A stretch of 64,000 bases of DNA from Campylobacterota bacterium (GTDB lineage: Bacteria > Campylobacterota > Campylobacteria > Campylobacterales > Arcobacteraceae), in contig JAYEJC010000113.1 of NCBI GenBank assembly GCA_034660335.1, forward strand, positions 13,731 through 77,730, read 5' to 3'. The position numbers were made by a program, and so were the translations under genes. The notes under the pieces were generated by a model. The model searched no databases, was not told the DNA's origin, and saw only the letters and a list, made by a program, of their open reading frames with translations. This document shows positions 4,456 through 64,000 of this stretch, piece by piece (the stretch's first letter is position 1; each line of letters starts with the position of its first letter).

Positions 4456-7398
4456 ATGGCTTTAAAAATAAAGTTTGATAGACTTGATTATCAAGAACAA
4501 GCAGTAAATAGTATAAGTGATCTGTTTAAAAATATATCATTTACACCAAATAACAATAGAAAAAGTAATCCATCTTTTGACTTACAACAATCTAAAAGTA
4601 TATTGGTAAATAATATCACAAATGTACGAGAATCAAACAAAGTGGATATTGGAGATATATCTATAAAAGATGAACTTGTAGTAGATACTCTTATGGAAAC
4701 AGGTACGGGTAAGACATTTACTTTTTTAGAATCAATTTATAAACTCAACCGAGATTATGGACTGTCAAAGTTCATAATCTTGGTACCATCAAACCCTATA
4801 CGACAAGGTACAATTAAAAATATCAAAATCACAAAAGAGTTTTTTGTAAAAGAGTATGGAAAACAAATATCAGTATTTAACTACAGTGAAAAAACAGTTT
4901 TAAACTATATTAATGCCAGTGATCAAAATATCTCAGTACTTGTATCGACTTATCAGTCATTTAACAAAGCATCTAACAATATAAATAAAAGTAAGATAGA
5001 ACAAAGCCTAATAGGGCGTGCAAAAAGCTATATGCAAGCTATCGCACAACTAAAACCTGTAATCATTATTGATGAACCACATAGATTTGAGGGTAAACAA
5101 ACTGCAAAATATCTAAAATCATTTAATGCTCTTTTTACACTACGATTTGGTGCTACATTTAAAGGTGATGAATACAAAAACCTTATCTATACACTTGATA
5201 GTGTAGATGCATTTAGTCAAGGACTTGTAAAGGCTATAACAGTTGATACAGTTGGAAATGAAAATGTTGATAATCATACTATTAGCTTTACAAAAGTAAC
5301 AGGAAAAACTCAAAAAGACTATATATCTACAATTGAATACAAAGACATAAATTCAAAGAATAAAAAAGTAGAACTTAAAAAAGGTGAAAACTTAGGTGAA
5401 AAGGTAGATATAGAATATCTTAATAGTTATGTAGTTGATAAGATTACTAAAAGTGAAATTGTATTTACAAATAGTATCTCTCTACCTTTAGGAGTTGGTG
5501 AAAGTTATGGTGTCTTACTTGACGAGATGCAAAAGGTTATCGTAGATACGGCTATAAAAAACCACTTTGAAAGAGAAGAGGAGCTTTTTAAACTTGATAT
5601 AAAAGCACTTTGTTTATTTTTTATAGATAGAGTTGATAAGTATCTTACAGATGATGGTACAAATGGTAAACTTGCAATTCTATTTGAAACATTATATTTA
5701 AAGAATCTAAATGATGTTTTAAAAAGAGATAATCTCGATGAGGATTACAAGAAGTACCTTTTAAAAACAAAAGATAGTATCAAAAAGATACATAGTGGAT
5801 ATTTTGCTAAGTCAAAAAAAGAGGGAGATGAAGCAGAAGCTATTGAACTTATTTTGAATAAGAAAGAGGAACTATTATCTTTTGATAGTGACCTTAGATT
5901 TATATTTTCACAATGGGCGTTACAAGAGGGATGGGATAATCCAAATGTAATGACACTTTGTAAATTAGCACCGAGTAATTCAAAAATATCAAAACTACAA
6001 CAAATAGGTAGAGGACTTAGACTTGCAGTTGCTCAAGATGGTAAAAGAATAACAAAAGATGATAGTAACTTTGACTTTATCAATGAACTATTTGTAGTAG
6101 TACCATCAACAGAAGAGAACTTTGTAGCATCTATTCAAAGTGAGATAAGTGAGCATAGTGTTAGACAAGTATCTAAGCTATTCAACGAAGATATAATGGT
6201 GGCAAATCATATAGCTACAACTTCAAGATCAGCAGTAAAACTACTTGATAAACTTGAAGATATGGAGTTTATAACCATAGATGATGAAGATATGAGTGAA
6301 ATAACTATATCTAAAGAGCAATATAGCTCAAGATCTAAAGAGTTGGAATCTTTAGATGTAAAAGGTTGTGATAGTAGTAAATTAAAAGAGTACTTTGATA
6401 GCTTCTTTAAAGCTCACAATAGAATCAAAGCAAAAGATAGAACTGCTAAAAAAGAAAAAGGGAAAATCAAAATCCACCAAGAAAATTTTAAAAAGTTTAA
6501 AACACTATGGGACAACTTAAACTATGATGCAGTTGTAAAATATGATATCAATAGTAATACTTTGGTAGAAACAGCAAAAAAGAAAATAGATGAAAACTTT
6601 ACAATAAGTGGTCAAGATATTATTGTAAAAAGAGATAAAAATGTAGAAAATCAAGATAAATATGATAGTGAAAAAGATACAATATTTATAGAAACTCACT
6701 CTATATTTACACTTTATGAGTTTATAAAAGCATTATCCAATAATACAAAACTTAGTATGCAAACGATAGCCAAAGTACTACATGGAATCAAAAAAGACAC
6801 ATTTGAATTAATACCTCAAAATGAGAACTTAGCACTTAAAAAAATTGAAGAACAACTTGTAAGTGCAATCTATGATACGATTATAAATAAAATATCTTAT
6901 GATTTAAAAGAGATAAAAACTTGTAACACTTCACTAACTGATAAAAACGGTAATATGAAAGAGTTTATTCCAGAGGGTAGCTTAGGTGTTGAAACATATA
7001 AAATTAAGTCTAAAAATATAAGAGAGTTATCAATCTACGATGAAGATTTTATGGAGGTTGATAGTAACATTGAAAAAACTACAATTGATGAGTCTAGTGA
7101 TAAAAAAATTACAGTATTTGGAAAACTACCAAAAGTGAATATCCCTACAGCTCATGGAAGAAACTATAATCCAGACTTTGGATATGTGATAGAGTCTAAA
7201 GATGATAAAGAATTATATTTTGTAGTTGAAACTAAAGGTTATGATACTTTTGAAGAGATTGGAGCAAAAGAGAAGTTGCAAACAGAAAGTGCAAAGGCAT
7301 TTTTTAAAAAACTACAAGAAAAAGGTGTAAATGTACACTATAAAACTAAGCTAAATAGTCCTGATTTATCAGTATTAATAAGTGATATTTTGAAGTAA
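4456..7398 (+). CDS. res: Type III restriction enzyme Res subunit (SF2 helicase plus C-terminal PD-(D/E)XK nuclease)
   Basis: Walker A-like METGTGKT, DEPH box (IIIDEPHRF) and QQIGRGLR motif VI are present. The C-terminal nuclease motif is NPDFGYV...FVVETKG. Confidence 0.9.
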   Translation: MALKIKFDRLDYQEQAVNSISDLFKNISFTPNNNRKSNPSFDLQQSKSILVNNITNVRESNKVDIGDISIKDELVVDTLMETGTGKTFTFLESIYKLNRDYGLSKFIILVPSNPIRQGTIKNIKITKEFFVKEYGKQISVFNYSEKTVLNYINASDQNISVLVSTYQSFNKASNNINKSKIEQSLIGRAKSYMQAIAQLKPVIIIDEPHRFEGKQTAKYLKSFNALFTLRFGATFKGDEYKNLIYTLDSVDAFSQGLVKAITVDTVGNENVDNHTISFTKVTGKTQKDYISTIEYKDINSKNKKVELKKGENLGEKVDIEYLNSYVVDKITKSEIVFTNSISLPLGVGESYGVLLDEMQKVIVDTAIKNHFEREEELFKLDIKALCLFFIDRVDKYLTDDGTNGKLAILFETLYLKNLNDVLKRDNLDEDYKKYLLKTKDSIKKIHSGYFAKSKKEGDEAEAIELILNKKEELLSFDSDLRFIFSQWALQEGWDNPNVMTLCKLAPSNSKISKLQQIGRGLRLAVAQDGKRITKDDSNFDFINELFVVVPSTEENFVASIQSEISEHSVRQVSKLFNEDIMVANHIATTSRSAVKLLDKLEDMEFITIDDEDMSEITISKEQYSSRSKELESLDVKGCDSSKLKEYFDSFFKAHNRIKAKDRTAKKEKGKIKIHQENFKKFKTLWDNLNYDAVVKYDINSNTLVETAKKKIDENFTISGQDIIVKRDKNVENQDKYDSEKDTIFIETHSIFTLYEFIKALSNNTKLSMQTIAKVLHGIKKDTFELIPQNENLALKKIEEQLVSAIYDTIINKISYDLKEIKTCNTSLTDKNGNMKEFIPEGSLGVETYKIKSKNIRELSIYDEDFMEVDSNIEKTTIDESSDKKITVFGKLPKVNIPTAHGRNYNPDFGYVIESKDDKELYFVVETKGYDTFEEIGAKEKLQTESAKAFFKKLQEKGVNVHYKTKLNSPDLSVLISDILK

Positions 7399-7400
7399 AC

Positions 7401-7438
7401 TATATAAAAAAAGTTAAGTAGTTTACAGACTACTTAAC
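7401..7438 (-). terminator. rho-independent terminator of trpE; also closes the convergent res gene
   Basis: A 10-bp stem GTTAAGTAGT/ACTACTTAAC (7413-7422 / 7429-7438) is followed on the minus strand by T7 (7404-7410). The stem overlaps the trpE stop codon. Confidence 0.6.
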
Positions 7439-8841
7439 TCTTTGAGTGTGCTGATATTTGCAGCTAGTTTATTGTTTACTTCCAAAAACTCTAGTTCAGG
7501 TATAGAATCTGCAACCACACCAGCACCAGCTTGGAAGATAACTGTATCATCTTTGATAAGGGTAGTTCGTATAGTAATAGCACTATCCATATTCCCATCA
7601 AAACCAAAGTAAGCGATACTTCCACTATAAAAACTTCTTTTTAGTTTTTCAAACTGTGCTATTAGTTCCATAGCTCGTATTTTAGGAGCACCTGTCATGG
7701 TACCTGCTGTAAATGTAGCAGCAAAAAGATCAAACATATCATACTTCTCATCCAATGTAGCCTCAACATCAGAAACAAGATGCATAACATGTGAATATTT
7801 TTCGACTCTCATCTTATCTGTTACTTCTACTGTACCAGTTGCAGCAACTCTACCTACATCATTTCTACCAAGGTCAATAAGCATAACATGCTCAGCGACC
7901 TCTTTTGGGTCATTTCTAAGCTCTTGCTCCATCTCTTTGTCTTTGGCTATTGTACGCCCTCTTTTTCTTGTACCCGCAATTGGTCTTAAAAGTATTCTAT
8001 CATCTGTAAGTCTTACCATCACCTCAGGACTACTTCCAGCAATACAAAAATCTTCATATTCAAGTAAAAAAAGATAAGGACTAGGATTTTTAGATCGAAG
8101 CATTCTATAGAAACTCAAGTTATCAAGTTTTGCTTTTTGGGTATATCTATTTGTCATCAATATTTGAAAAACATCACCACTTCTTATCATCTCTTTTGAT
8201 TTTGCAATCATCTCAAAAAAATCATCTTTTGTATGCTCAAATTTACCATCTTCTAGAAGTGTAGCTTTTTGAAGTGGTGTATAGCTAAATGGCTCTTGCA
8301 GTTTTGTCTCTATTTGTGGTATATACTCTTTCATACTTTTCATAGATGTAGTTATGATAAGCTTTGAGCTTTTGTGTGAATAAACAAGTACCATCTTTGG
8401 TCTTATCAAATCACAATCAGCTATATTGATATCGTCTCTTAGATCAGACATAGTATCTTCTAGTCTTGTCTCAAATGTAGCTACCATATCGTAGCCCATA
8501 TTTCCTATAAAACCATCAATAAGCCCTATACCTAACTCATCGCCTTTTTTTTTGTATATATCTTTATCTATATTGTTATAATACTCTTTTAAAAAAATAA
8601 AAGGATTTTTATCTATTTTTATTGTTGTGCCATCTTCATCTTTATAAAAACTCTCTTTGTTTTTATGCCAAACACGCTCTCTTGCACCTATTATTATATA
8701 ACTAAAATTTCCATCACTACTATTTACTACTGACTCAAAAAGAAATCTAACCTCATTTGGAAAGATATCTTTTATTTTTTCATATATAGATACAGGCGTA
8801 AACTGATCTAAAAACATAGTTTTATTATAAAATTCTATCAT
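7423..8841 (-). CDS. trpE: anthranilate synthase component I
   Basis: Chorismate-binding enzyme signatures LLRPIAGTRKRG, GAPKIRAMELI and GAGVVADS are present. Length is 472 aa. Confidence 0.9.
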   Translation of the reverse strand: MIEFYNKTMFLDQFTPVSIYEKIKDIFPNEVRFLFESVVNSSDGNFSYIIIGARERVWHKNKESFYKDEDGTTIKIDKNPFIFLKEYYNNIDKDIYKKKGDELGIGLIDGFIGNMGYDMVATFETRLEDTMSDLRDDINIADCDLIRPKMVLVYSHKSSKLIITTSMKSMKEYIPQIETKLQEPFSYTPLQKATLLEDGKFEHTKDDFFEMIAKSKEMIRSGDVFQILMTNRYTQKAKLDNLSFYRMLRSKNPSPYLFLLEYEDFCIAGSSPEVMVRLTDDRILLRPIAGTRKRGRTIAKDKEMEQELRNDPKEVAEHVMLIDLGRNDVGRVAATGTVEVTDKMRVEKYSHVMHLVSDVEATLDEKYDMFDLFAATFTAGTMTGAPKIRAMELIAQFEKLKRSFYSGSIAYFGFDGNMDSAITIRTTLIKDDTVIFQAGAGVVADSIPELEFLEVNNKLAANISTLKELSSL

Positions 8842-8851
8842 TTAAATACCT

Positions 8852-9811
8852 TTATATTTTTAATATATAAGCTTTTTTATTATTAAAAGTTTTTTTAATT
8901 TTATTAATATATCTTAATGCAGTTTTTTTAGTAGGGTAAGGTCCTATTAATACTTTGTTGTAAATAGTCCCTTTTACTTTTATAGAATATATAGTATAGT
9001 CATATCCATGTCTAGATATATTCAACAAAAATTTATCTGTTGGTTTTTTTGAGAATGCACCTATTTGTACAAAGTAGCCCTCTATTTTTCCATTATTTTT
9101 TTTAGTAAAATTAGTCTCTTTTGGTGGATTTATATTTGATATTTTTCGTCTAGGTGAATCTTGTTTTGGCACTACTTTTTTAACAACTGGTTTAGGTTTT
9201 ACAACTGGTTTGACTTTATCTTCACCTAATCCAAAAAGGTCTTTTGGAGCAGCAGCCTCTTTTTTTGGTTGTTCGATTACTACTGGAGGTTTCTCTTTTA
9301 TTGGTTCTGGTAGTATTATCTCTTGTTTTTCTGTAGTTTCTATATCTAAATCATCGCTTGTTGTTAAGTCTTGCTTGATTATAGGTTTTACTGTATCTTG
9401 AGTATCCATTTTATTTAAGATTTCATCTTTGTTTATTGTTAATGGTTTTTTGACTTCCTCTTTTATCTGATCTTCTACAGTACTATTTGAACTGATTCTA
9501 ATAACTACAATAATAACAATAAAAAGTATAATCATTGTCAATATCAATATAATATATTTTTTCTTATTTTTGTTGTTGTTATCAGGCTCAAGCATAATAT
9601 CTTGTAGCTGATTTATAGCTGTTTCATCACTATCATCTTTTCCATAAGATATATCAACATAAGCGGAGTCATCTTTATTAATGTTATAAGAGTTTTCTTT
9701 TTTTACAGCATCTCTTTTTTTTTGTTCAAGTTTTTTTTGCTCCTCCATAAGTTGGGCTTTATCTTGCTCTAAACTAACATTTCTCAAAAACTCTTTTCCA
9801 TCAACTTCCAT
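8852..9811 (-). CDS. SPOR domain-containing membrane protein
   Basis: It has a Lys/Glu-rich N-terminus, one TM segment (YIILILTMIILFIVIIVVI) and a Pro/Lys-rich linker. The C-terminal SPOR-like fold reads GYFVQIGAFSKK...YNKVLIGPY. Confidence 0.7.
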   Translation of the reverse strand: MEVDGKEFLRNVSLEQDKAQLMEEQKKLEQKKRDAVKKENSYNINKDDSAYVDISYGKDDSDETAINQLQDIMLEPDNNNKNKKKYIILILTMIILFIVIIVVIRISSNSTVEDQIKEEVKKPLTINKDEILNKMDTQDTVKPIIKQDLTTSDDLDIETTEKQEIILPEPIKEKPPVVIEQPKKEAAAPKDLFGLGEDKVKPVVKPKPVVKKVVPKQDSPRRKISNINPPKETNFTKKNNGKIEGYFVQIGAFSKKPTDKFLLNISRHGYDYTIYSIKVKGTIYNKVLIGPYPTKKTALRYINKIKKTFNNKKAYILKI

Positions 9812-57239: not shown

Positions 57240-59264
57240 CTATATATACCATTTTTTAAGATTTAGATTTTCTATACATATTATAAAATCATTATATATA
57301 GGAAATGTCTGAAGAGTTTTTTTATCTTTTTTTATCTCAAATTTAAAATCTATCTTTTCATCTTTTTTTTGAAGTGGTATTTTTATCTCTGCTTTTAAAT
57401 TTGTATAAAAAATCTCATAATCTTTTATATCTTTATTGTCTAATTTTATATCTATTCTTTTATTATCTGAAAAATCACCCTCAAATAAAAATGAAATAGA
57501 ATCACTATCATACCCATATAGAACTTTTGTAACAATATTATTTGTAGAGTCCATCACACTAAACTCTTTTGTTATATCTATCTGTCCACAATCAAGCCAC
57601 TCAAAATAATCACTTTTTATACCATCAACTGTAGGTGTGATAAAACTCTTTGGTTTAGTGTGAAAGTTACTGTTTTGGGTATCTTGCACTATAGGTATAA
57701 GTATCTGTGAGGGGGTATTTATATTCATAAAGTTGTAGATATTTATAAGATGTTTCCTAAAAAGGTCATCAAACTCTTTTGCTTGAACTGTAAAGTGGTC
57801 ATCTCCATACCACCAAAACCAATCACTTCCAAGTGCTATCATAAACTCTTTTTCTATAAGCTCTTTTACTTCATCGTTTAGATGCTCTTTTTGTTTATCA
57901 TACTCTTGTTTAGTGATATCAAGAAGCTCCCAAGCTCTATTTTTCTCATCGCTTCCTATCCAGATATCAAAGTTACCATTGATCCAACTTCCTGATGAGA
58001 GATGTGAGATATCTACTTTTTTGATATCGCTATCACTTGATATCTCATCCATAGTGACACACTCTATCCAAGGTATATCTTCAAAATTCTTATATAATTC
58101 ATAAAAAAACTCTTGTGCATTGTTTGGAAAAAACTCCCAAGCATTTTCACCATCAAGTATCACATTTACTAAAGGGTTGAAATCACAAGAATCATAGATA
58201 TTTTTTAGATGAACTACAAACTCATCTGCACTTTGTTTTGCATCTTTTTGACTATACTCAAACCCTATAGCATCACTTAGAAAATGGTCTCTAAATCTTA
58301 CATCTATAGAGTTTTCATTTGTTTTTAGAGTATAGTTTTTATAGATATTTGTTTTATCTCTATCATTTAGTGTTTTAAAGAGTATCTCCTCATCACTACA
58401 AAACCATCTTAAAGAGTTTGAGCTAAATAGCTCTGCTGTTTTTTGACTAACACTCCCCTCAGCTGGCCAAAAACCTGTAGGTTTCACTCCAAAGTTTTCT
58501 TCAAAGTAAGCTATAGCATCTCTTGTATTTCTTTCCCCTAACTCTTTAAAACTACTTTGAGTATTTGGAATAGTTACATCAGCTCTTGCCTCTTTTGCAC
58601 TATTGATATCTAAAAGTAAAGGAGTGATAGGATGATAGTATGGAGTAGTACAAAGTGTGATTTTATCTTTATCGTTTAACTCTTTATAGTACTTTAGAAT
58701 TGTGGGTAAAAATTCTGTAAGAGATTCTAGAAGTTTAAGCTTTTCATTGTGTGTATAAACTCTTTGTTTGTTTATAAGGTTTTTCACTATTGTATTACTT
58801 TCCCTTAGATAGTTTCCACACCAAGATAATAAAAACAACACTTGAGTATCTAAAATCTCTTGATATTCAAACTCTTTTAAGCTATTGTGAGTTTTATATT
58901 TTAGATAAAGCTCATAATATCTCTTAAGAGGTTTTATCATATTTTTTTCATTTGATAAAAAAAGATAATGCTCTAAGATAGCCATATCTTCACTATTTAA
59001 AGTTCTTATATCTTTTTTTATAGTCTCCAGCAACTTATCGTTTGCACTATTATTTATATACGATTTTATCTGCTCAATAAGTGATGGTACGAGATTATAT
59101 GTAGCTTTTATACCATCAAATTCTCTAGCATACCAAGGGATATCATAGTAGTCTTTCAAACAGTGTAAAAATACCCAAGGCATCATAGTAGATGAGTTTT
59201 TATCATCTTTATAATAAGGCTGGTGCATATGCCATAAAAAGGCTAATTTTAGTTTTTTGTCCAT
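57240..59264 (-). CDS. glycoside hydrolase family 57 protein (alpha-glucan processing)
   Basis: GH57 N-terminal signatures WHMHQPYY and GFWPAEGSVS are present, together with DGENAWE and WFWWYG. Length is 674 aa. Confidence 0.8.
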   Translation of the reverse strand: MDKKLKLAFLWHMHQPYYKDDKNSSTMMPWVFLHCLKDYYDIPWYAREFDGIKATYNLVPSLIEQIKSYINNSANDKLLETIKKDIRTLNSEDMAILEHYLFLSNEKNMIKPLKRYYELYLKYKTHNSLKEFEYQEILDTQVLFLLSWCGNYLRESNTIVKNLINKQRVYTHNEKLKLLESLTEFLPTILKYYKELNDKDKITLCTTPYYHPITPLLLDINSAKEARADVTIPNTQSSFKELGERNTRDAIAYFEENFGVKPTGFWPAEGSVSQKTAELFSSNSLRWFCSDEEILFKTLNDRDKTNIYKNYTLKTNENSIDVRFRDHFLSDAIGFEYSQKDAKQSADEFVVHLKNIYDSCDFNPLVNVILDGENAWEFFPNNAQEFFYELYKNFEDIPWIECVTMDEISSDSDIKKVDISHLSSGSWINGNFDIWIGSDEKNRAWELLDITKQEYDKQKEHLNDEVKELIEKEFMIALGSDWFWWYGDDHFTVQAKEFDDLFRKHLINIYNFMNINTPSQILIPIVQDTQNSNFHTKPKSFITPTVDGIKSDYFEWLDCGQIDITKEFSVMDSTNNIVTKVLYGYDSDSISFLFEGDFSDNKRIDIKLDNKDIKDYEIFYTNLKAEIKIPLQKKDEKIDFKFEIKKDKKTLQTFPIYNDFIICIENLNLKKWYI

Positions 59265-59378
59265 AAGTGAATTGTACTGAAGTGATGTTTCAATTTGATT
59301 ACAAGGTTTTAAACAATATTTACAACTAAAAAAGCTCGGATAATGGTGATTGTAGCCTAGTTTCTCTTTTGTGCTTTG

Positions 59379-59624
59379 TTATATAGTTGCTACTTTAGAG
59401 TTTAATTCTTGTAATCTTTGAGCTATCCACATTTTTATGACTGCTTGTCTGCTTACTCCAATATGCTTTGCTTCTTTGTCTAATGATTTAACCATCCAAG
59501 ATGGAAAATCAATATTTATTCTTTTGGGTTCTTCATTTATCATTCTTATTTTTGATGTATCGAAATATTCTAATATATCTTCTTTATTATCACCAAATTT
59601 TTTATCTATTTCTAATGCTTTCAT
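59379..59624 (-). CDS. brnA: BrnA antitoxin (CopG/RHH-like)
   Basis: RINIDFPSWMVKSLDKEAKHIGVSRQAVIKMWIAQRL is the typical BrnA C-terminus. Confidence 0.75.
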   Translation of the reverse strand: MKALEIDKKFGDNKEDILEYFDTSKIRMINEEPKRINIDFPSWMVKSLDKEAKHIGVSRQAVIKMWIAQRLQELNSKVATI

Positions 59625-59775
59625 AAAGTTTTATCTCTTTTTCTCTTGATCTTCTTACGGAAATTATTCTAATATTAGGTATTCTATAAGTAATTATTGC
59701 TGTATAATTTTTAGAATTAATTTGACCTAATACTAAAAATCTTTTCTCCTAGGTTTTGTTGTATGTTTCACTACT
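59602..59775 (-). pseudogene. 5'-truncated brnT (DUF497) toxin remnant with an in-frame stop
   Basis: The minus-strand frame reads SSETYNKT*EKRFLVLGQINSKNYTAIITYRIPNIRIISVRRSREKEIKLYESIRNR*. This is the BrnT C-terminal core (E.RF..LG ... IRIIS.R). The roughly 45 N-terminal residues are missing, and the Fic gene stop lies 12 nt upstream. Confidence 0.55.
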
Positions 59776-59786
59776 TCAATGCTCGA

Positions 59787-60581
59787 TTATTTTCTAAAGT
59801 TACTCTCGTTTTCTCTCGATTGTTCTATCTCTACAATCATCTCAATAACTTTTTTATAACTGTTGATAAAATACTTTTTAAATAAAGTATAATTACCAGT
59901 TTCATAGTAAGTTACTATAGATTTTAAATACTCTTTTACACTCTCTTCATCTGGGATATATATCATATTTAATGTATCTTTTAAAACTACATTTAACATT
60001 AGTCTTGCAGTTCTTTTATTACAATCAGTAAAGTATTGAAGATATGCTAAATTATTATGAATATACAATGCTTTATTAAATGGATTTTCTATAGTATCAC
60101 TTATTTTAAATAGATAATTTAATTCATCATCAAGTTTTTCTTTTGTAGCCAATGGAATATAGTTACATCCTAAAATAGTAACTTCACTATCTCTTGGGGT
60201 CGCTCTTTTATTTTCAGGTATCATCTCAGCAGATAAAATATAGTGTAAATCTTTTAAAGTTTGTTTAGATGGTTTTAAATCTTGTGTTATAAATATTTCA
60301 TAAGCATCTCGAAGATTTAAAATCATTTTAGCATCACTATATTTTTTTCCACCTGCTGTTCTTCCGTATTGTATCAAAGCTTGAGTGTCTAGCTTATCAT
60401 AAGTATTACCCTCAATAAGTGCAGATGTATGGATAAAATCTAATCCAAATTTATCTATATAACTTTTATTGTTCAAAAACTTTTCTAATGAAACTTTTTG
60501 ATTTAATTCTTCTAAAAGTTTCATCTCATTTGGTGTAAATATATCTGTATTATCTAAATAATTAGGATTGTAAGTTATCAT
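59787..60581 (-). CDS. Fic/DOC family protein, class II layout, with degenerate active-site motif
   Basis: The N-terminal inhibitory-helix motif is SALIEG, matching (S/T)xxxE(G/N). The Fic-motif position reads QYFTDCNKRTAR instead of HPFx(D/E)GNGRxxR. Confidence 0.75.
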   Translation of the reverse strand: MITYNPNYLDNTDIFTPNEMKLLEELNQKVSLEKFLNNKSYIDKFGLDFIHTSALIEGNTYDKLDTQALIQYGRTAGGKKYSDAKMILNLRDAYEIFITQDLKPSKQTLKDLHYILSAEMIPENKRATPRDSEVTILGCNYIPLATKEKLDDELNYLFKISDTIENPFNKALYIHNNLAYLQYFTDCNKRTARLMLNVVLKDTLNMIYIPDEESVKEYLKSIVTYYETGNYTLFKKYFINSYKKVIEMIVEIEQSRENESNFRK

Positions 60582-60583
60582 TG

Positions 60584-61114
60584 TTAGTTCCTATTTTCTT
60601 CTTTATAGTTTTTCAAGTTTTCTTTTAGTTTAGTCATTTTATCTAAATCTATTTGAAGATTATCAAAAACTATTTTTTGAATTTTTTTATCAGTATCATT
60701 AATAATTGGTACTCTTTTTTTAAAATCATCTATACTGATAAAGCGTTTATACTTAGTTTCATCTCTTGCCATTAAAATTCTATTTATTAATACATCTCCA
60801 ATATCTAATGATTCTAATCCTAAAGCCAAACGCGTTACTCTTTTCTTTAACCAATCATTATTTAATTCTTTATTTTGAACTTTAACAAAAGTAGCTTGTT
60901 TTTGAGATATATTAATATTTGGTTCAATTATTTTTAATCCTAAATTTTTAGCATTATCTTTTTTTAATACAGTTTGCTTACCAATATTTAAATCAATAAA
61001 TTTTAGTTTTAATTTATCATGAAATTTAATAGTTTTATTCTTGACTTTTTTAATTTGTTTTTGATAATTTATAGCATTATAGCTAAAGATTGATTTAATG
61101 TTTATTTTATTCAT
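60584..61114 (-). CDS. hypothetical Lys/Asn-rich protein (176 aa)
   Basis: It lies 2 nt upstream of the Fic gene on the same strand. No motif was recognised. Confidence 0.5.
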   Translation of the reverse strand: MNKINIKSIFSYNAINYQKQIKKVKNKTIKFHDKLKLKFIDLNIGKQTVLKKDNAKNLGLKIIEPNINISQKQATFVKVQNKELNNDWLKKRVTRLALGLESLDIGDVLINRILMARDETKYKRFISIDDFKKRVPIINDTDKKIQKIVFDNLQIDLDKMTKLKENLKNYKEENRN

Positions 61115-61147
61115 ACAACGCCTGAAGTAAGCTACAAGGCGATAATT

Positions 61148-61618
61148 TTAAGTTAAATTTTCAACTTGCTCTATTAATCTTCCCATAGTTCTATCTGATT
61201 TTAGCTCAATAACATAAAGATTGCCATCCTTAAAGCCTAATATATCATTAACAATTCTTTTTTTATTTTCATCATAAACTGCCATTTCAGATGTAATAAA
61301 TTTAATTTCATCTCCACATGGTAGTATATAATTGTTTTTTATTGCATTTTGTATTATCCAAGATTGTAGTACCTTTTCTGGTGTTGCTCTTTTAGGTTTA
61401 TCTTTTTCTTTTAAGTCATTAATTTTTGATAATATCGTTTTTTCTGTTCTTATCGATGAAAATCCTAATTCAGGTTTATTTTTACTTATTGAAATTAATG
61501 ACATAGAATTAATACTACCTCTACATTTAAAGATGAATTTAAGTCCAAGTTTATACCAAATCAAATTATAACTAGCACTTAAATAGTTAGTTCTAATTTG
61601 ATTTGGTATTAGTTTCAT
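61148..61618 (-). CDS. small PD-(D/E)XK (NucS/DUF91/Shedu-like) nuclease-fold protein
   Basis: The motif string is PEKVLQSWIIQN...SEMAV...NDILGFKDGNLYVIELKSDR, that is E..D..ExK with the typical G.L.VIELK strand. The true start may be the internal M39 (MSLISISK). Confidence 0.5.
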   Translation of the reverse strand: MKLIPNQIRTNYLSASYNLIWYKLGLKFIFKCRGSINSMSLISISKNKPELGFSSIRTEKTILSKINDLKEKDKPKRATPEKVLQSWIIQNAIKNNYILPCGDEIKFITSEMAVYDENKKRIVNDILGFKDGNLYVIELKSDRTMGRLIEQVENLT

Positions 61619-61686
61619 CTTTTATGAATAATATCTATTTTTGGAGATACCCTAAATAATAATACAGTAGCACATCAAAAGATGTA

Positions 61687-64000
61687 CTACTCATTTATCC
61701 AATTTTCTATCTTATTTTGATAGTCCCAAAATATTTTGCTAGCGTTTTTTTCATCTTCTGCTTGTATGTATAAGTTTAGATAGTCACTATGCTCATCTGG
61801 TACCATTAAAATCCACTCATCTTCATTTATCCATGTTTTTATACCATCTATGTTGCTAGTATCTTTACCTTTTCCATCTTCTAGGAATTTTCTCATCATT
61901 TTACCTTTGTATTGGCTAGGGCATGGTAGATTTTCCCCTTTGAAAACAAAGCTAGGTATTAGTTTTAATACTTCAGATATTTTAAGATCAGCCTTATTTA
62001 TAAGCTCCAAAATCTTAAAACTAGCATAGATAGAGTCACTATTTAGACCAAACTCATTAAATGCAAAGTGTCCATCAGTTGATGCTATAAGTGCATATTC
62101 TTTTAAATCTTGAGCTTTTACACTACTTAGTTTTCCTCTTGTTATCACAAGATTTTTATACTCACAAAAATCAGGTGCCCAAGCTGGCAAAAATACTTTT
62201 GTATCTTTTTGTGATGTGATATCAAGAAGTTTTAAAACTGCTAAAAGAGCTTTGTAGTCATATACTAGTTTACCTTTATCATCAATCATTTGAAGTCTTT
62301 GACCATTTGGATAGACTAAAAATCCACAATCCAATCCCATAGCTTTTACTATATTTTCCATATTTTCTTGTGATTTGGTGATATTTGCATAAAGTTTTGA
62401 TAAGCTTTTATCATCTTTGTATGCATTTAAAACTACATTTTCAATCCCTAGCTCATTCATAATATTAGGATAAATATCAGAAGTTGAACCAAACATTATA
62501 TCAGTAGCTACTTTTAGTTCATTATCTTTAAATATATTTGTATCAAGATTAGATGTAACTGCATCTATATATCTTTGTTTGATATTGTTTTCCTCATCTA
62601 TCTCCCCTATTTCGTGTTGATTTACTCTTCTAAAGTTTTCTCGAAAAAATATTCTCTCAATAGATTTTGCTATTTTAGTGTCTATTGCCATACCATCACT
62701 TGTAAAAAGTATAATTTCAGTGTTTGTAGGGTCTTGAACTGATTGTCTAAAGTGGATACCCGCTGAGATATCTTCATTGTTTGATAAGCAGTGTCTCATC
62801 ACATTTGATGGGGCATTAAATATATCTATCACATCTATACCAGTTGCAAGAAGTCCTGAAAGAAATGCTCTTTTTAACATCCTAGAACTTTTATGATAAT
62901 CTCTTGAGATATATACTTTACTTCCAATTGGTAAAATAGAACCAAATGATTCAGCTAATTTTGTACTCATCTCAACTGAAAGCTCTATATTTGTTCTACC
63001 TGTTACTTTTCCATTCTCAAAAATAGATGATTTGTATTTTGTACCCCAAATAACATTGTTACTTACAACTGAGTTTGCATCTATGATTTTTTCTGGCCAC
63101 ATTATGATATCTTTTTCAAAAGATACTTTTTTACCTATTTCACATTTTTCAGCTACTATAACCCCTAAAGATGCTTTTACATCATCTTTGATTATATTGT
63201 CATTACATATGATAGAGTTGTTTATCTTTGTTTTTGAACCAATTGTTACATCATCCCAAACTACACTATTTTCAACTTCTGAGTGTTTTTTAATCTTTGT
63301 ATTTTTCCCTATGCAACTATTTGTTAGCGTAGCACCCTCTGAGATTTTCACACCTTTATCAATAACTACTGTACCATTTATTCTGATTTTTTCAGGTAGT
63401 TTTACCCCTTTTTCAAGATATACGACACCTTTGTCTATCTTTTGAGGTTCACCTTTTATAGGAAGTTTAATATCACCTTTAAATATATCTTGATAAACCT
63501 CTCTATAGCTTTGTGGATTACCAACATCTCTCCAATATCCATCTATACTACATCCCCATAGTGGTATATTATCTTTCATCAAAGTTGGAAACAGATCTTT
63601 TGCAAAATCAAAGTTTTCACCGTGTGGTATATACTTTAAAATTTCAGGCTCTATTACATAAATACCTGTATTGATTGTATCACTAAACACCTCGCCCCAG
63701 CTAGGTTTTTCTAAAAACTTCTCTATTCTATCATCTTCATTTGCTATAACTACACCAAATTGAAGTGGGTCTTCTACTCTTGTAAGTGTAATAGTTAGTT
63801 GTGATTTTTTCTTTTTGTGAAATTTTGCTATTTTTTTAAAATCAAAGTTTGTAACTAAATCTCCACTTACTATGATAAATGTATCATCTAAAAACTCTCT
63901 TGCAAAAGCAACAGCTCCAGCTGTACCATAGTCATCATCTGGTTGAACATATGTGATTTTCACACCTAGATCACTTCCATCACCAAAGTGGTTTTTGATA
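61687..64000 (-). CDS. bifunctional NDP-sugar pyrophosphorylase (nucleotidyltransferase plus LbH) / phosphohexomutase; N-terminus lies beyond the right edge
   Basis: The frame stays open to nt 64000 (…IKNHFGDGSDLGVKITYVQPDD). Nucleotidyltransferase motifs GTAGAV and SGDLV are followed by hexapeptide repeats. The C-terminal half is PGM/PMM-like. Confidence 0.85.
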   Translation of the reverse strand, partial: IKNHFGDGSDLGVKITYVQPDDDYGTAGAVAFAREFLDDTFIIVSGDLVTNFDFKKIAKFHKKKKSQLTITLTRVEDPLQFGVVIANEDDRIEKFLEKPSWGEVFSDTINTGIYVIEPEILKYIPHGENFDFAKDLFPTLMKDNIPLWGCSIDGYWRDVGNPQSYREVYQDIFKGDIKLPIKGEPQKIDKGVVYLEKGVKLPEKIRINGTVVIDKGVKISEGATLTNSCIGKNTKIKKHSEVENSVVWDDVTIGSKTKINNSIICNDNIIKDDVKASLGVIVAEKCEIGKKVSFEKDIIMWPEKIIDANSVVSNNVIWGTKYKSSIFENGKVTGRTNIELSVEMSTKLAESFGSILPIGSKVYISRDYHKSSRMLKRAFLSGLLATGIDVIDIFNAPSNVMRHCLSNNEDISAGIHFRQSVQDPTNTEIILFTSDGMAIDTKIAKSIERIFFRENFRRVNQHEIGEIDEENNIKQRYIDAVTSNLDTNIFKDNELKVATDIMFGSTSDIYPNIMNELGIENVVLNAYKDDKSLSKLYANITKSQENMENIVKAMGLDCGFLVYPNGQRLQMIDDKGKLVYDYKALLAVLKLLDITSQKDTKVFLPAWAPDFCEYKNLVITRGKLSSVKAQDLKEYALIASTDGHFAFNEFGLNSDSIYASFKILELINKADLKISEVLKLIPSFVFKGENLPCPSQYKGKMMRKFLEDGKGKDTSNIDGIKTWINEDEWILMVPDEHSDYLNLYIQAEDEKNASKIFWDYQNKIENWINE

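Follow-up and report, generated by a model that had tools for sequence, protein, structure and literature searches.

A probable relic of a four-gene nuclease cassette and an orphan brnA in the glycogen gene cluster of a Campylobacterota bacterium

Do three closely spaced genes within the glycogen gene cluster of a Campylobacterota bacterium (Arcobacteraceae) form a working toxin or defence module? The genes are located on a stretch of 64,000 nucleotides (assembly GCA_034660335.1, contig JAYEJC010000113.1, positions 13,731 to 77,730), which is called the window here and to which all positions refer. Four co-oriented open reading frames (ORFs) of 156, 176, 264 and 81 amino acids (aa) are found on the minus strand between an NDP-sugar pyrophosphorylase/PMM gene and a GH57 gene. 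The original prediction regarded the first three as a nuclease, an unknown protein and a Fic-fold protein of an uncharacterised system, which had been inserted into a brnT-brnA (brnTA) toxin-antitoxin locus. The ORF coordinates, the strand and the spacing (33 nt between the 156-aa and 176-aa ORFs, 2 nt between the 176-aa ORF and the Fic gene) were reproduced in the ORF list; the three-gene module was not. The block is very probably a degraded accessory island, the wreck of a four-gene cassette and of a brnT-brnA pair. Judged from the sequence, only the Fic gene and brnA are intact in it, and the reading frames of 156 and 176 aa are open by chance across what is left of two larger genes, which are called A and B. 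The features of the block are as follows:

61148-61618, minus strand: called 156-aa ORF (ORF list)
61155..61526, minus strand: fragment of gene A within the called ORF 61148-61618, corresponding to residues ~29-152 of family A
61071..61154, minus strand: deletion junction or filler of ~84 nt, containing the stop TAA of the called 156-aa ORF and the start ATG of the called 176-aa ORF
60584-61114, minus strand: called 176-aa ORF (ORF list)
60584..61070, minus strand: fragment of gene B within the called ORF 60584-61114, corresponding to residues ~140-307 of family B
59787..60581, minus strand: intact Fic-fold gene, 264 aa (PF02661)
59602..59775, minus strand: brnT pseudogene, C-terminal half only (PF04365 match)
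59379..59624, minus strand: intact brnA, 81 aa, orphan (NF047399)

The 156-aa and 176-aa sequences were joined and searched as one query, and the 48 matches belonged to two separate families, A and B. The 156-aa ORF has 27 homologues, 218-270 aa long, and its residues 32-155 are aligned to their residues ~29-152. The best match, P0005, shows 90% identity over residues 29-152 of its 222 residues, and the multiple alignment agrees. The typical length of family A is ~220-230 aa; a profile search of 1.84 billion representatives also revealed 411 members (representatives at 50% identity), typically 215-270 aa, which matched the whole 1-225 profile. The first ~30 codons of the 156-aa ORF (61527-61618) are made of a hairpin and have no homology to gene A. 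Since gene A homology is absent upstream of ~61526, gene A does not begin at the ATG at 61618.

The conserved residues of family A are E108, D122, E135 and K137 (P0005 numbering), which are invariant or nearly so. The full-length model of P0005 (pLDDT 93) showed a restriction-endonuclease-like core. Its top Foldseek matches in the PDB were nearly all PD-(D/E)XK nucleases, with E-values of 2.7e-3 or weaker, including the R2 endonuclease, Can2, Cdn1, EndoMS, McrC, XisH and SduA. Both the motif and the fold of gene A are therefore those of the PD-(D/E)XK superfamily. The window fragment retains the E...D...ExK motif and has lost the N-terminal helices and the C-terminal ~70 residues, i.e. the C-terminal third of the fold, to which one of the core strands belongs. 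The nuclease fold that the original prediction saw in the 156-aa protein is thus borne out; its completeness is not, for the protein is a fragment of a ~220-230-aa gene. Some family A members (P0322, P0369, P0391 and P0431) are fused to a second nuclease domain (PDDEXK_13 or REase-ARP) at either end.

The 176-aa ORF, which had been described as lacking any recognisable motif, showed an HHH_6 match below the threshold (E 3.2e-5, 24.5 bits vs 25.6) and is clearly homologous to a PolIII-alpha-derived family, over the C-terminal half of the latter. It aligns to residues ~127/140-307 of 21 homologues (P0001-P0021), mostly 291-323 aa in length, with 62-81% identity. The full-length family B protein (~307 aa) contains a PolIII-alpha palm in the N-terminal half, and its C-terminal half resembles the helix-hairpin-helix beta-binding region. 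The N-terminal half matches positions 15-127 of the palm model PF07733 (49.7 bits, cut-off 23.9, for the full-length B of the relative L005), and in Foldseek it matched the palm of solved PolIII-alpha structures (7pu7, E 2e-5). The sequence PTINIV is found at the aligned position of the catalytic PDxDxD motif; since the catalytic aspartates are replaced, family B cannot be a polymerase. In the window the palm-like half has been entirely deleted, and only the C-terminal half is kept.

DNA alignment of the window with L001 and L005 gave two matching blocks, and ~620 bp between them are absent from the window. The last (3') third of A and codons 1 to ~125-140 of B would fall within the missing segment. 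The best local match of the junction filler was to gene A of L005 (7886-7924), which was equalled by 11 of 300 shuffles and is marginal. The filler may in part be left over from the 3' region of gene A. The two ORFs share one frame, with only one TAA and 11 codons between them, which would also fit one ~344-aa gene similar to PDC-S11 whose frame is broken by an error of sequencing, by a recent nonsense mutation or by a stop that is read through. The joint length is near that of the PDC-S11 models (347-379 positions), and a weak match is found around the nuclease motif. However, the fusion matched PDC-S11 no better than the 156-aa ORF alone and at positions 12-87 only, and the ~620 bp are missing. 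A single interrupted gene was rejected as highly improbable, because each half is homologous to a different gene, the two genes are distinct in all the relatives (with an 11-nt overlap in three contexts and ~35 nt between them in L057), and no full-length homologue of the fused 344 aa was found among the 48 matches.

Could the three ORFs nevertheless work as they stand, as a toxin or defence module with small functional proteins? They are open, co-oriented and closely spaced, the 156-aa ORF keeps the E...D...ExK motif, and genes of the A, B and Fic types are found together elsewhere. However, no homologue has these lengths or ends, and the good matches (218-323 aa) overrun both fragments. The 156-aa ORF is without the N-terminal helices and a core strand and starts in a hairpin unrelated to gene A, the 176-aa ORF is without the palm-like half, and the first gene of the cassette is missing. 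A working module of this kind is very unlikely. The original prediction was to be abandoned if the 156-aa ORF proved to be a piece of a larger gene, and both ORFs are such truncated fragments.

What the fragments would derive from can be seen in the relatives, where the intact gene order is a beta-CASP metallo-beta-lactamase (MBL) nuclease, A, B and Fic. The unit is thus one of four genes and not of three as had been proposed, and its first gene, the MBL gene, is absent from the window. On the 57.5-kb metagenomic contig L005 (Ga0256842_1000165; L006 is alike) the MBL is 456 aa, A 227 aa, B 314 aa and Fic 264 aa, and the cassette (5954-9720) lies between cheR and pyrH-rpoZ-spoT. In L005 the MBL and A genes are 3 nt apart, and the A/B and B/Fic junctions overlap. 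All four genes are also present in L057 and in L066, where the cassette adjoins a tyrosine integrase. The A/B overlap is 11 nt in L005/L006 and L066, whereas A and B are ~35 nt apart in L057; B and Fic overlap by 11-20 nt in L005/L006 and L057, and the remaining junctions are gaps of 1-35 nt. The expectation that the nuclease, the ‘unknown’ and the Fic genes co-occur elsewhere was therefore confirmed in L005/L006, L057 and L066, where they are adjacent, overlapping or at most ~35 nt apart. It holds in part for L061-L063, which contain MBL, a different protein of 278 aa, B and Fic (96% identical to the window Fic), followed by an AbiC-like gene. There B and Fic are adjacent, but the second position is taken by this other protein, which has a PD-(D/E)XK-like E...D...EAK stretch. 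The cassette was found in at least four genomic contexts. The MBL carries the HPHQDH (HxHxDH) motif and the Lactamase_B and RMMBL domains, and resembles RNase J and CPSF73.

Partial forms of the cassette were also observed. L001-L004 contain MBL-A-B without Fic, located between ParE/Phd toxin-antitoxin genes; in L064/65 the MBL is apparently fused to a nuclease-like region (weak HSDR_N_2 match, E 0.03) and is followed by B without Fic. The cassette decays in other loci too (L001-L004 and L066). The B gene of L001-L004 is disrupted and split into ORFs of 220 aa and 30 aa. In L066 and L067 an additional small ORF, of 97 aa and 77 aa respectively, comes after a 443-aa MBL gene, and the C-terminal end of the MBL may be disrupted. 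The Bacteroidota-like contigs L007-L014 contain an MBL (415 aa), A (229 aa) and a protein of 118-137 aa without a family match, and neither B nor Fic; in L007-L012 a SpoIIE-type phosphatase gene comes after this short cassette.

Homology and alignment show that, compared with the intact cassette, the window has lost the MBL gene, the first ~28 codons of A and the ~620 bp over the A/B junction; the brnT-brnA pair has lost the 5' half of brnT. No tested point contradicts the reading of the block as a relic.

Why has the Fic gene been kept? The presence of a Fic-fold protein, which had been predicted, was confirmed (PF02661, E 3.5e-9, 37.8 bits, cut-off 24, residues 105-200), and the window protein is 91% identical to the Fic of the L005 cassette. 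Its active-site motif is Q182-Y-F-T-D-C-N-K-R-T-A-R (QYFTDCNKRTAR), in which the His of HxFx(D/E)GN(G/K)RxxR is replaced by Gln, so that the motif is not that of a competent AMPylase. The QYFxDCNKR sequence is invariant in all 120 homologues listed and in six further relatives, namely three from Helicobacter, one from Succinivibrionaceae and two divergent Sulfurovum loci. The inhibitory-helix motif of class II, (S/T)xxxE(G/N), is present as S53-A-L-I-E57-G58 and is aligned with the helix region of the FICD homologue 5jj6. The ratio of non-synonymous to synonymous substitution rates (dN/dS) was 0.025-0.11 against six relatives, which indicates that the protein is under strong purifying selection. 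The ‘degenerate’ Fic2 toxin of Campylobacter fetus was reported to be still dependent on His184 (PMC5651007). Literature searches gave nothing specific on a Fic family with Gln for His. This His-less Fic probably binds a nucleotide or phosphate, or modifies its target by a non-canonical chemistry. It would be a terminal module that is useful independently, and such a function of its own would explain why Fic is kept while the upstream genes decay.

The same pattern is found at other Fic loci. In L019 and L020 Fic is immediately preceded by a remnant of the 3' part of B. The breakpoints there are residues 189 and 199, compared with ~140 in the window, and the B remnant of L020 contains an in-frame stop. 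The differing breakpoints indicate three independent truncations in which Fic was kept and the upstream genes were lost. Beside the B fragment of L019, a 395-aa ORF on the opposite strand (17-1204) may encode an IS3-type transposase, judging from its N-terminal sequence; this suggests that the truncation of B in L019 was mediated by an insertion sequence (IS). In a neighbour-joining tree of the Fic proteins the cassette-linked and solitary copies were interleaved, and the tree was too poorly resolved for counting losses.

The Fic gene might also be autonomous, i.e. a moron-like mobile toxin or regulator, or a conserved host gene, which happens to lie downstream of many different operons and has no functional tie to MBL-A-B; the decayed nuclease cassette beside it in the window would then be unrelated to it. 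In 35 of the 40 usable loci (37 from a scan of species-representative genomes, L005/L006 and the window) neither A nor B was nearby, and no neighbour was conserved. The diverse upstream partners include AIPR, a caspase-like protein, an AAA+ protein with DUF5677, RmuC, ArdC-like and HipA-domain genes. Copies also occur on a plasmid of C. fetus and in a Helicobacter prophage, and the cassette occurs without Fic in L001-L004 and L064/65 as MBL-A-B and in Bacteroidota as MBL-A. On the other hand, the order MBL-(nuclease)-B-Fic recurs in those at least four contexts with Fic overlapping B or 3-15 nt after it, and the three independent truncations of B leave its 3' end joined to Fic. Autonomy of the Fic gene is a serious possibility, somewhat below an even chance, and it is compatible with the relic.

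The plasmid and prophage copies are also worth describing. The His-less Fic on plasmid pCfviMP1 of C. fetus subsp. venerealis (L068, 3031-4810) is 45% identical to the window protein (QYFEDCNKRTAR). A HipA-domain kinase gene ends 1 nt before it, IS200/IS605 and IS607 elements lie on either side, and the arrangement could represent another pairing of Fic with a toxin-type partner. The copy in the Helicobacter bizzozeronii prophage BK070048.1 (L069, 3001-3780) is 44% identical, is located between portal and early genes, and looks like a moron.

The brnT-brnA part of the original prediction was reproduced: brnT, at about 12 nt from the Fic gene, is truncated and has an in-frame stop, and brnA is intact. 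The brnT remnant begins 11-12 nt past the Fic stop in another frame, overlaps the start of brnA, and carries a TAG at 59749-59751. It covers positions 40-77 of the 77 of PF04365 (E 3.6e-8, 34.0 bits, cut-off 34.5) and is not a complete BrnT. The BrnA protein matched the NF047399 equivalog over its full length (positions 1-70 of 70, E 1.7e-33, 114.6 bits, cut-off 60). The Fic gene and brnA are both intact, co-oriented and 162 nt apart with the brnT remnant between them, and one could regard them as a hybrid toxin-antitoxin pair born of the rearrangement, with BrnA neutralising Fic. However, the Fic protein has its own SxxxEG inhibitory motif, and BrnA is specific to BrnT by family assignment. 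The chance of such a pair is minimal, and it was rejected because brnA was not found beside Fic at any of the 39 other Fic loci.

Was the cassette inserted into the brnTA locus, and is the site itself variable? The edges of the accessory block are as follows:

59310-61686: accessory block of ~2.4 kb, between the NDP-sugar pyrophosphorylase/PMM gene and GH57-galT-glgA
61687-63963: NDP-sugar pyrophosphorylase/PMM gene, flanking the block
61666..61691, minus strand: terminator-like hairpin with a T-rich tail, directly 3' of the PMM gene stop, at the left edge of the block
61553..61609, no strand assigned: inverted repeat with 22-nt arms (95% complementary) and a 13-nt loop (repeat analysis)
59265..59310, minus strand: conserved upstream region of the GH57 gene, where L058 homology starts; right edge of the variable block
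57240-59264: GH57 gene, flanking the block on the other side

The GC fraction is 0.22-0.26 in the block vs 0.28-0.33 in the flanks. In L059 (GH57 72% identical) the pyrophosphorylase/PMM gene directly abuts GH57-galT-glgA with no block between, which supports the earlier view that the block separates genes of one cluster. In the closest relative, L058 (GH57 90% identical), the homology to the window starts ~45 nt ahead of the GH57 start. In the L058 sequence (JAYELQ010000215.1, 1-479) GH57 is directly preceded by another kind of Fic gene, which has the canonical HPFADGNGR motif, and brnTA is absent there. This canonical Fic occupies the site where the window has the His-less Fic, and the same assembly also holds a His-less Fic at another place (L030, contig 244). 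In the complete 2.7-Mb genome L060 (1-7866), RadC, a PemK toxin and a type I restriction-modification system are found upstream of GH57, a gene content that fits an accessory-gene hot spot. Since L059 is uninterrupted and L058 and L060 contain other accessory genes, the block occupies a variable accessory site. The accessory nature of the block proposed earlier is thus supported by these three relatives; a functional module in the window is not, as only Fic can function there. Insertion into a pre-existing brnTA locus is plausible and remains unproven: no relative with intact brnTA at this site was found, and L058 is without it.

The repeat analysis of the block revealed neither direct nor inverted repeats at its flanks from which an insertion mechanism could be recognised. 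The promoter scan of the block gave no more sites than shuffled sequence. No tRNA was found in the block by the Rfam and tRNA scans, in which the hairpins gave sub-threshold miRNA-like matches only. An exact look-up of the window GH57 protein returned no match. The hairpin at 61666-61691 has an 11-pair stem with four G-C pairs and the tail GTATTATTAT, and it is also present in the fold of the region. The inverted repeat sits just downstream of this terminator-like hairpin; it accounts for the greater part of codons 1 to ~22 in the called 156-aa ORF, outside gene A. The 171-nt stretch with the hairpins has a folding z of -6.6, and none of 200 shuffles folded equally well. The repeat arm occurs once in the window and was not found in the 60 loci fetched by then. 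The inverted repeat could be a recombination site, a regulatory element or a terminator.

Several points limit what can be said of the relic and of the cassette behind it. When the A and B fragments are compared with intact relatives, dN/dS is 0.16-0.57, as it is between intact copies; the decay is therefore recent or undatable, and the truncated products are possibly expressed. PADLOC 2.0 has no model matching the MBL or B, and family A gave weak partial matches only (PDC-S11 and PDC-S02); the function of the cassette is purely inferred. The census of cassette loci is small. It consists of individual contig look-ups, and a metagenome scan with the B alignment, whose patterns were over-degenerate, gave a single locus. 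Moreover, a functional tie of Fic to MBL-A-B is not established, because Fic is solitary in most of its loci.

With these reservations, the intact cassette could tentatively be regarded as a nuclease-based conflict system directed against phages or mobile elements, because it combines two nuclease folds with a DNA-binding dead polymerase, often has toxin-antitoxin, Abi and integrase genes as neighbours, and shows a patchy distribution. The polymerase-derived DNA-binding B would place both nucleases on DNA. A more specific and slightly more doubtful proposal is that the intact operon is an undescribed anti-phage or anti-mobile-DNA system, in which Fic would serve as a non-AMPylating sensor, regulator or effector that was retained after repeated losses. 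If this is true, the window records one loss event of such a system. For the window itself the result is corrective: two gene-like ORFs are pseudogene fragments, and there is no three-gene system. The locus also illustrates the decay of defence-type cassettes at a variable site in a metabolic gene cluster. Purifying selection on the His-less Fic subfamily is very strong, and its members occur on chromosomes of Campylobacterota, on a plasmid and in a prophage; this subfamily or the cassette could uncover a new Fic chemistry or a new nuclease targeting.

How do these proteins compare with known systems? The window Fic shares the Pfam Fic core and the SxxxEG motif with class II Fic proteins (FICD/HYPE-like), and its best solved relatives are FICD homologues (5jj6, E 4.8e-8). 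Unlike the Fic/Fido proteins, every member seen has Gln for the catalytic His and Cys for the first Gly (QxFxDCNKRxxR). The lysine of its ‘NKR’ motif is shared with Doc; however, the TIGR01550 score was 13.6 bits vs 38.65, and the protein is not a Doc. In contrast to the Fic toxin pairs, no antitoxin gene is consistently adjacent. The match to the PADLOC model SoFic was weak (E 1.4e-9, 35.8 bits, positions 34-257 of 361) and without the SoFic C-terminal domain, which does not make the protein a SoFic member. The window Fic also matched PDC-S04 weakly (E 7.7e-11) and the phage family phrog_11900 (E 2.7e-27). The brnT-brnA part resembles BrnT/BrnA systems in its full-length BrnA, the toxin-then-antitoxin order and the overlapping ends; it differs in that the toxin is a pseudogene in the window, and so it is no longer a toxin-antitoxin pair.

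Family A shares the motif and the core with the PD-(D/E)XK defence nucleases (NucS/EndoMS, Shedu SduA, Can2/Card1 and McrC). However, the TM scores are 0.25-0.39, there is no significant sequence-family membership, and its own N-terminal helical/beta domain and C-terminal extension set the family apart. For NucS/EndoMS and Shedu there was no Pfam, NCBIfam or PADLOC match, and in Foldseek EndoMS (5gke) ranked 5 with a TM score of 0.39 and SduA ranked 50 (E 0.16). The PDC-S11 match (E 1e-4 to 1e-3) covered only positions ~6-125 of ~350-380, which falls short of membership. Family B has the palm (PF07733) and the HHH_6-like C-terminal part of DnaE/PolC, but it is only ~307 aa long and has no PHP, fingers or OB domains. 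The cassette MBL shares its motifs with RNase J, CPSF73 and Cas14 of the type VII CRISPR systems, and its best solved relatives are RNase J; however, it scored far under all curated cut-offs (75.6 bits vs 400 for the RNase J family) and has different operon partners. No PADLOC model covered the gene combination, and literature searches (the cassette; PF07733 with defence; PDC-S11/PDC-S04) gave nothing specific on the cassette, which agrees with the original prediction that the combination is not a described system. The recurrent operon pairs two nuclease folds with a catalytically dead fragment of a replicative polymerase, and in this it is apparently distinct from the systems described so far.

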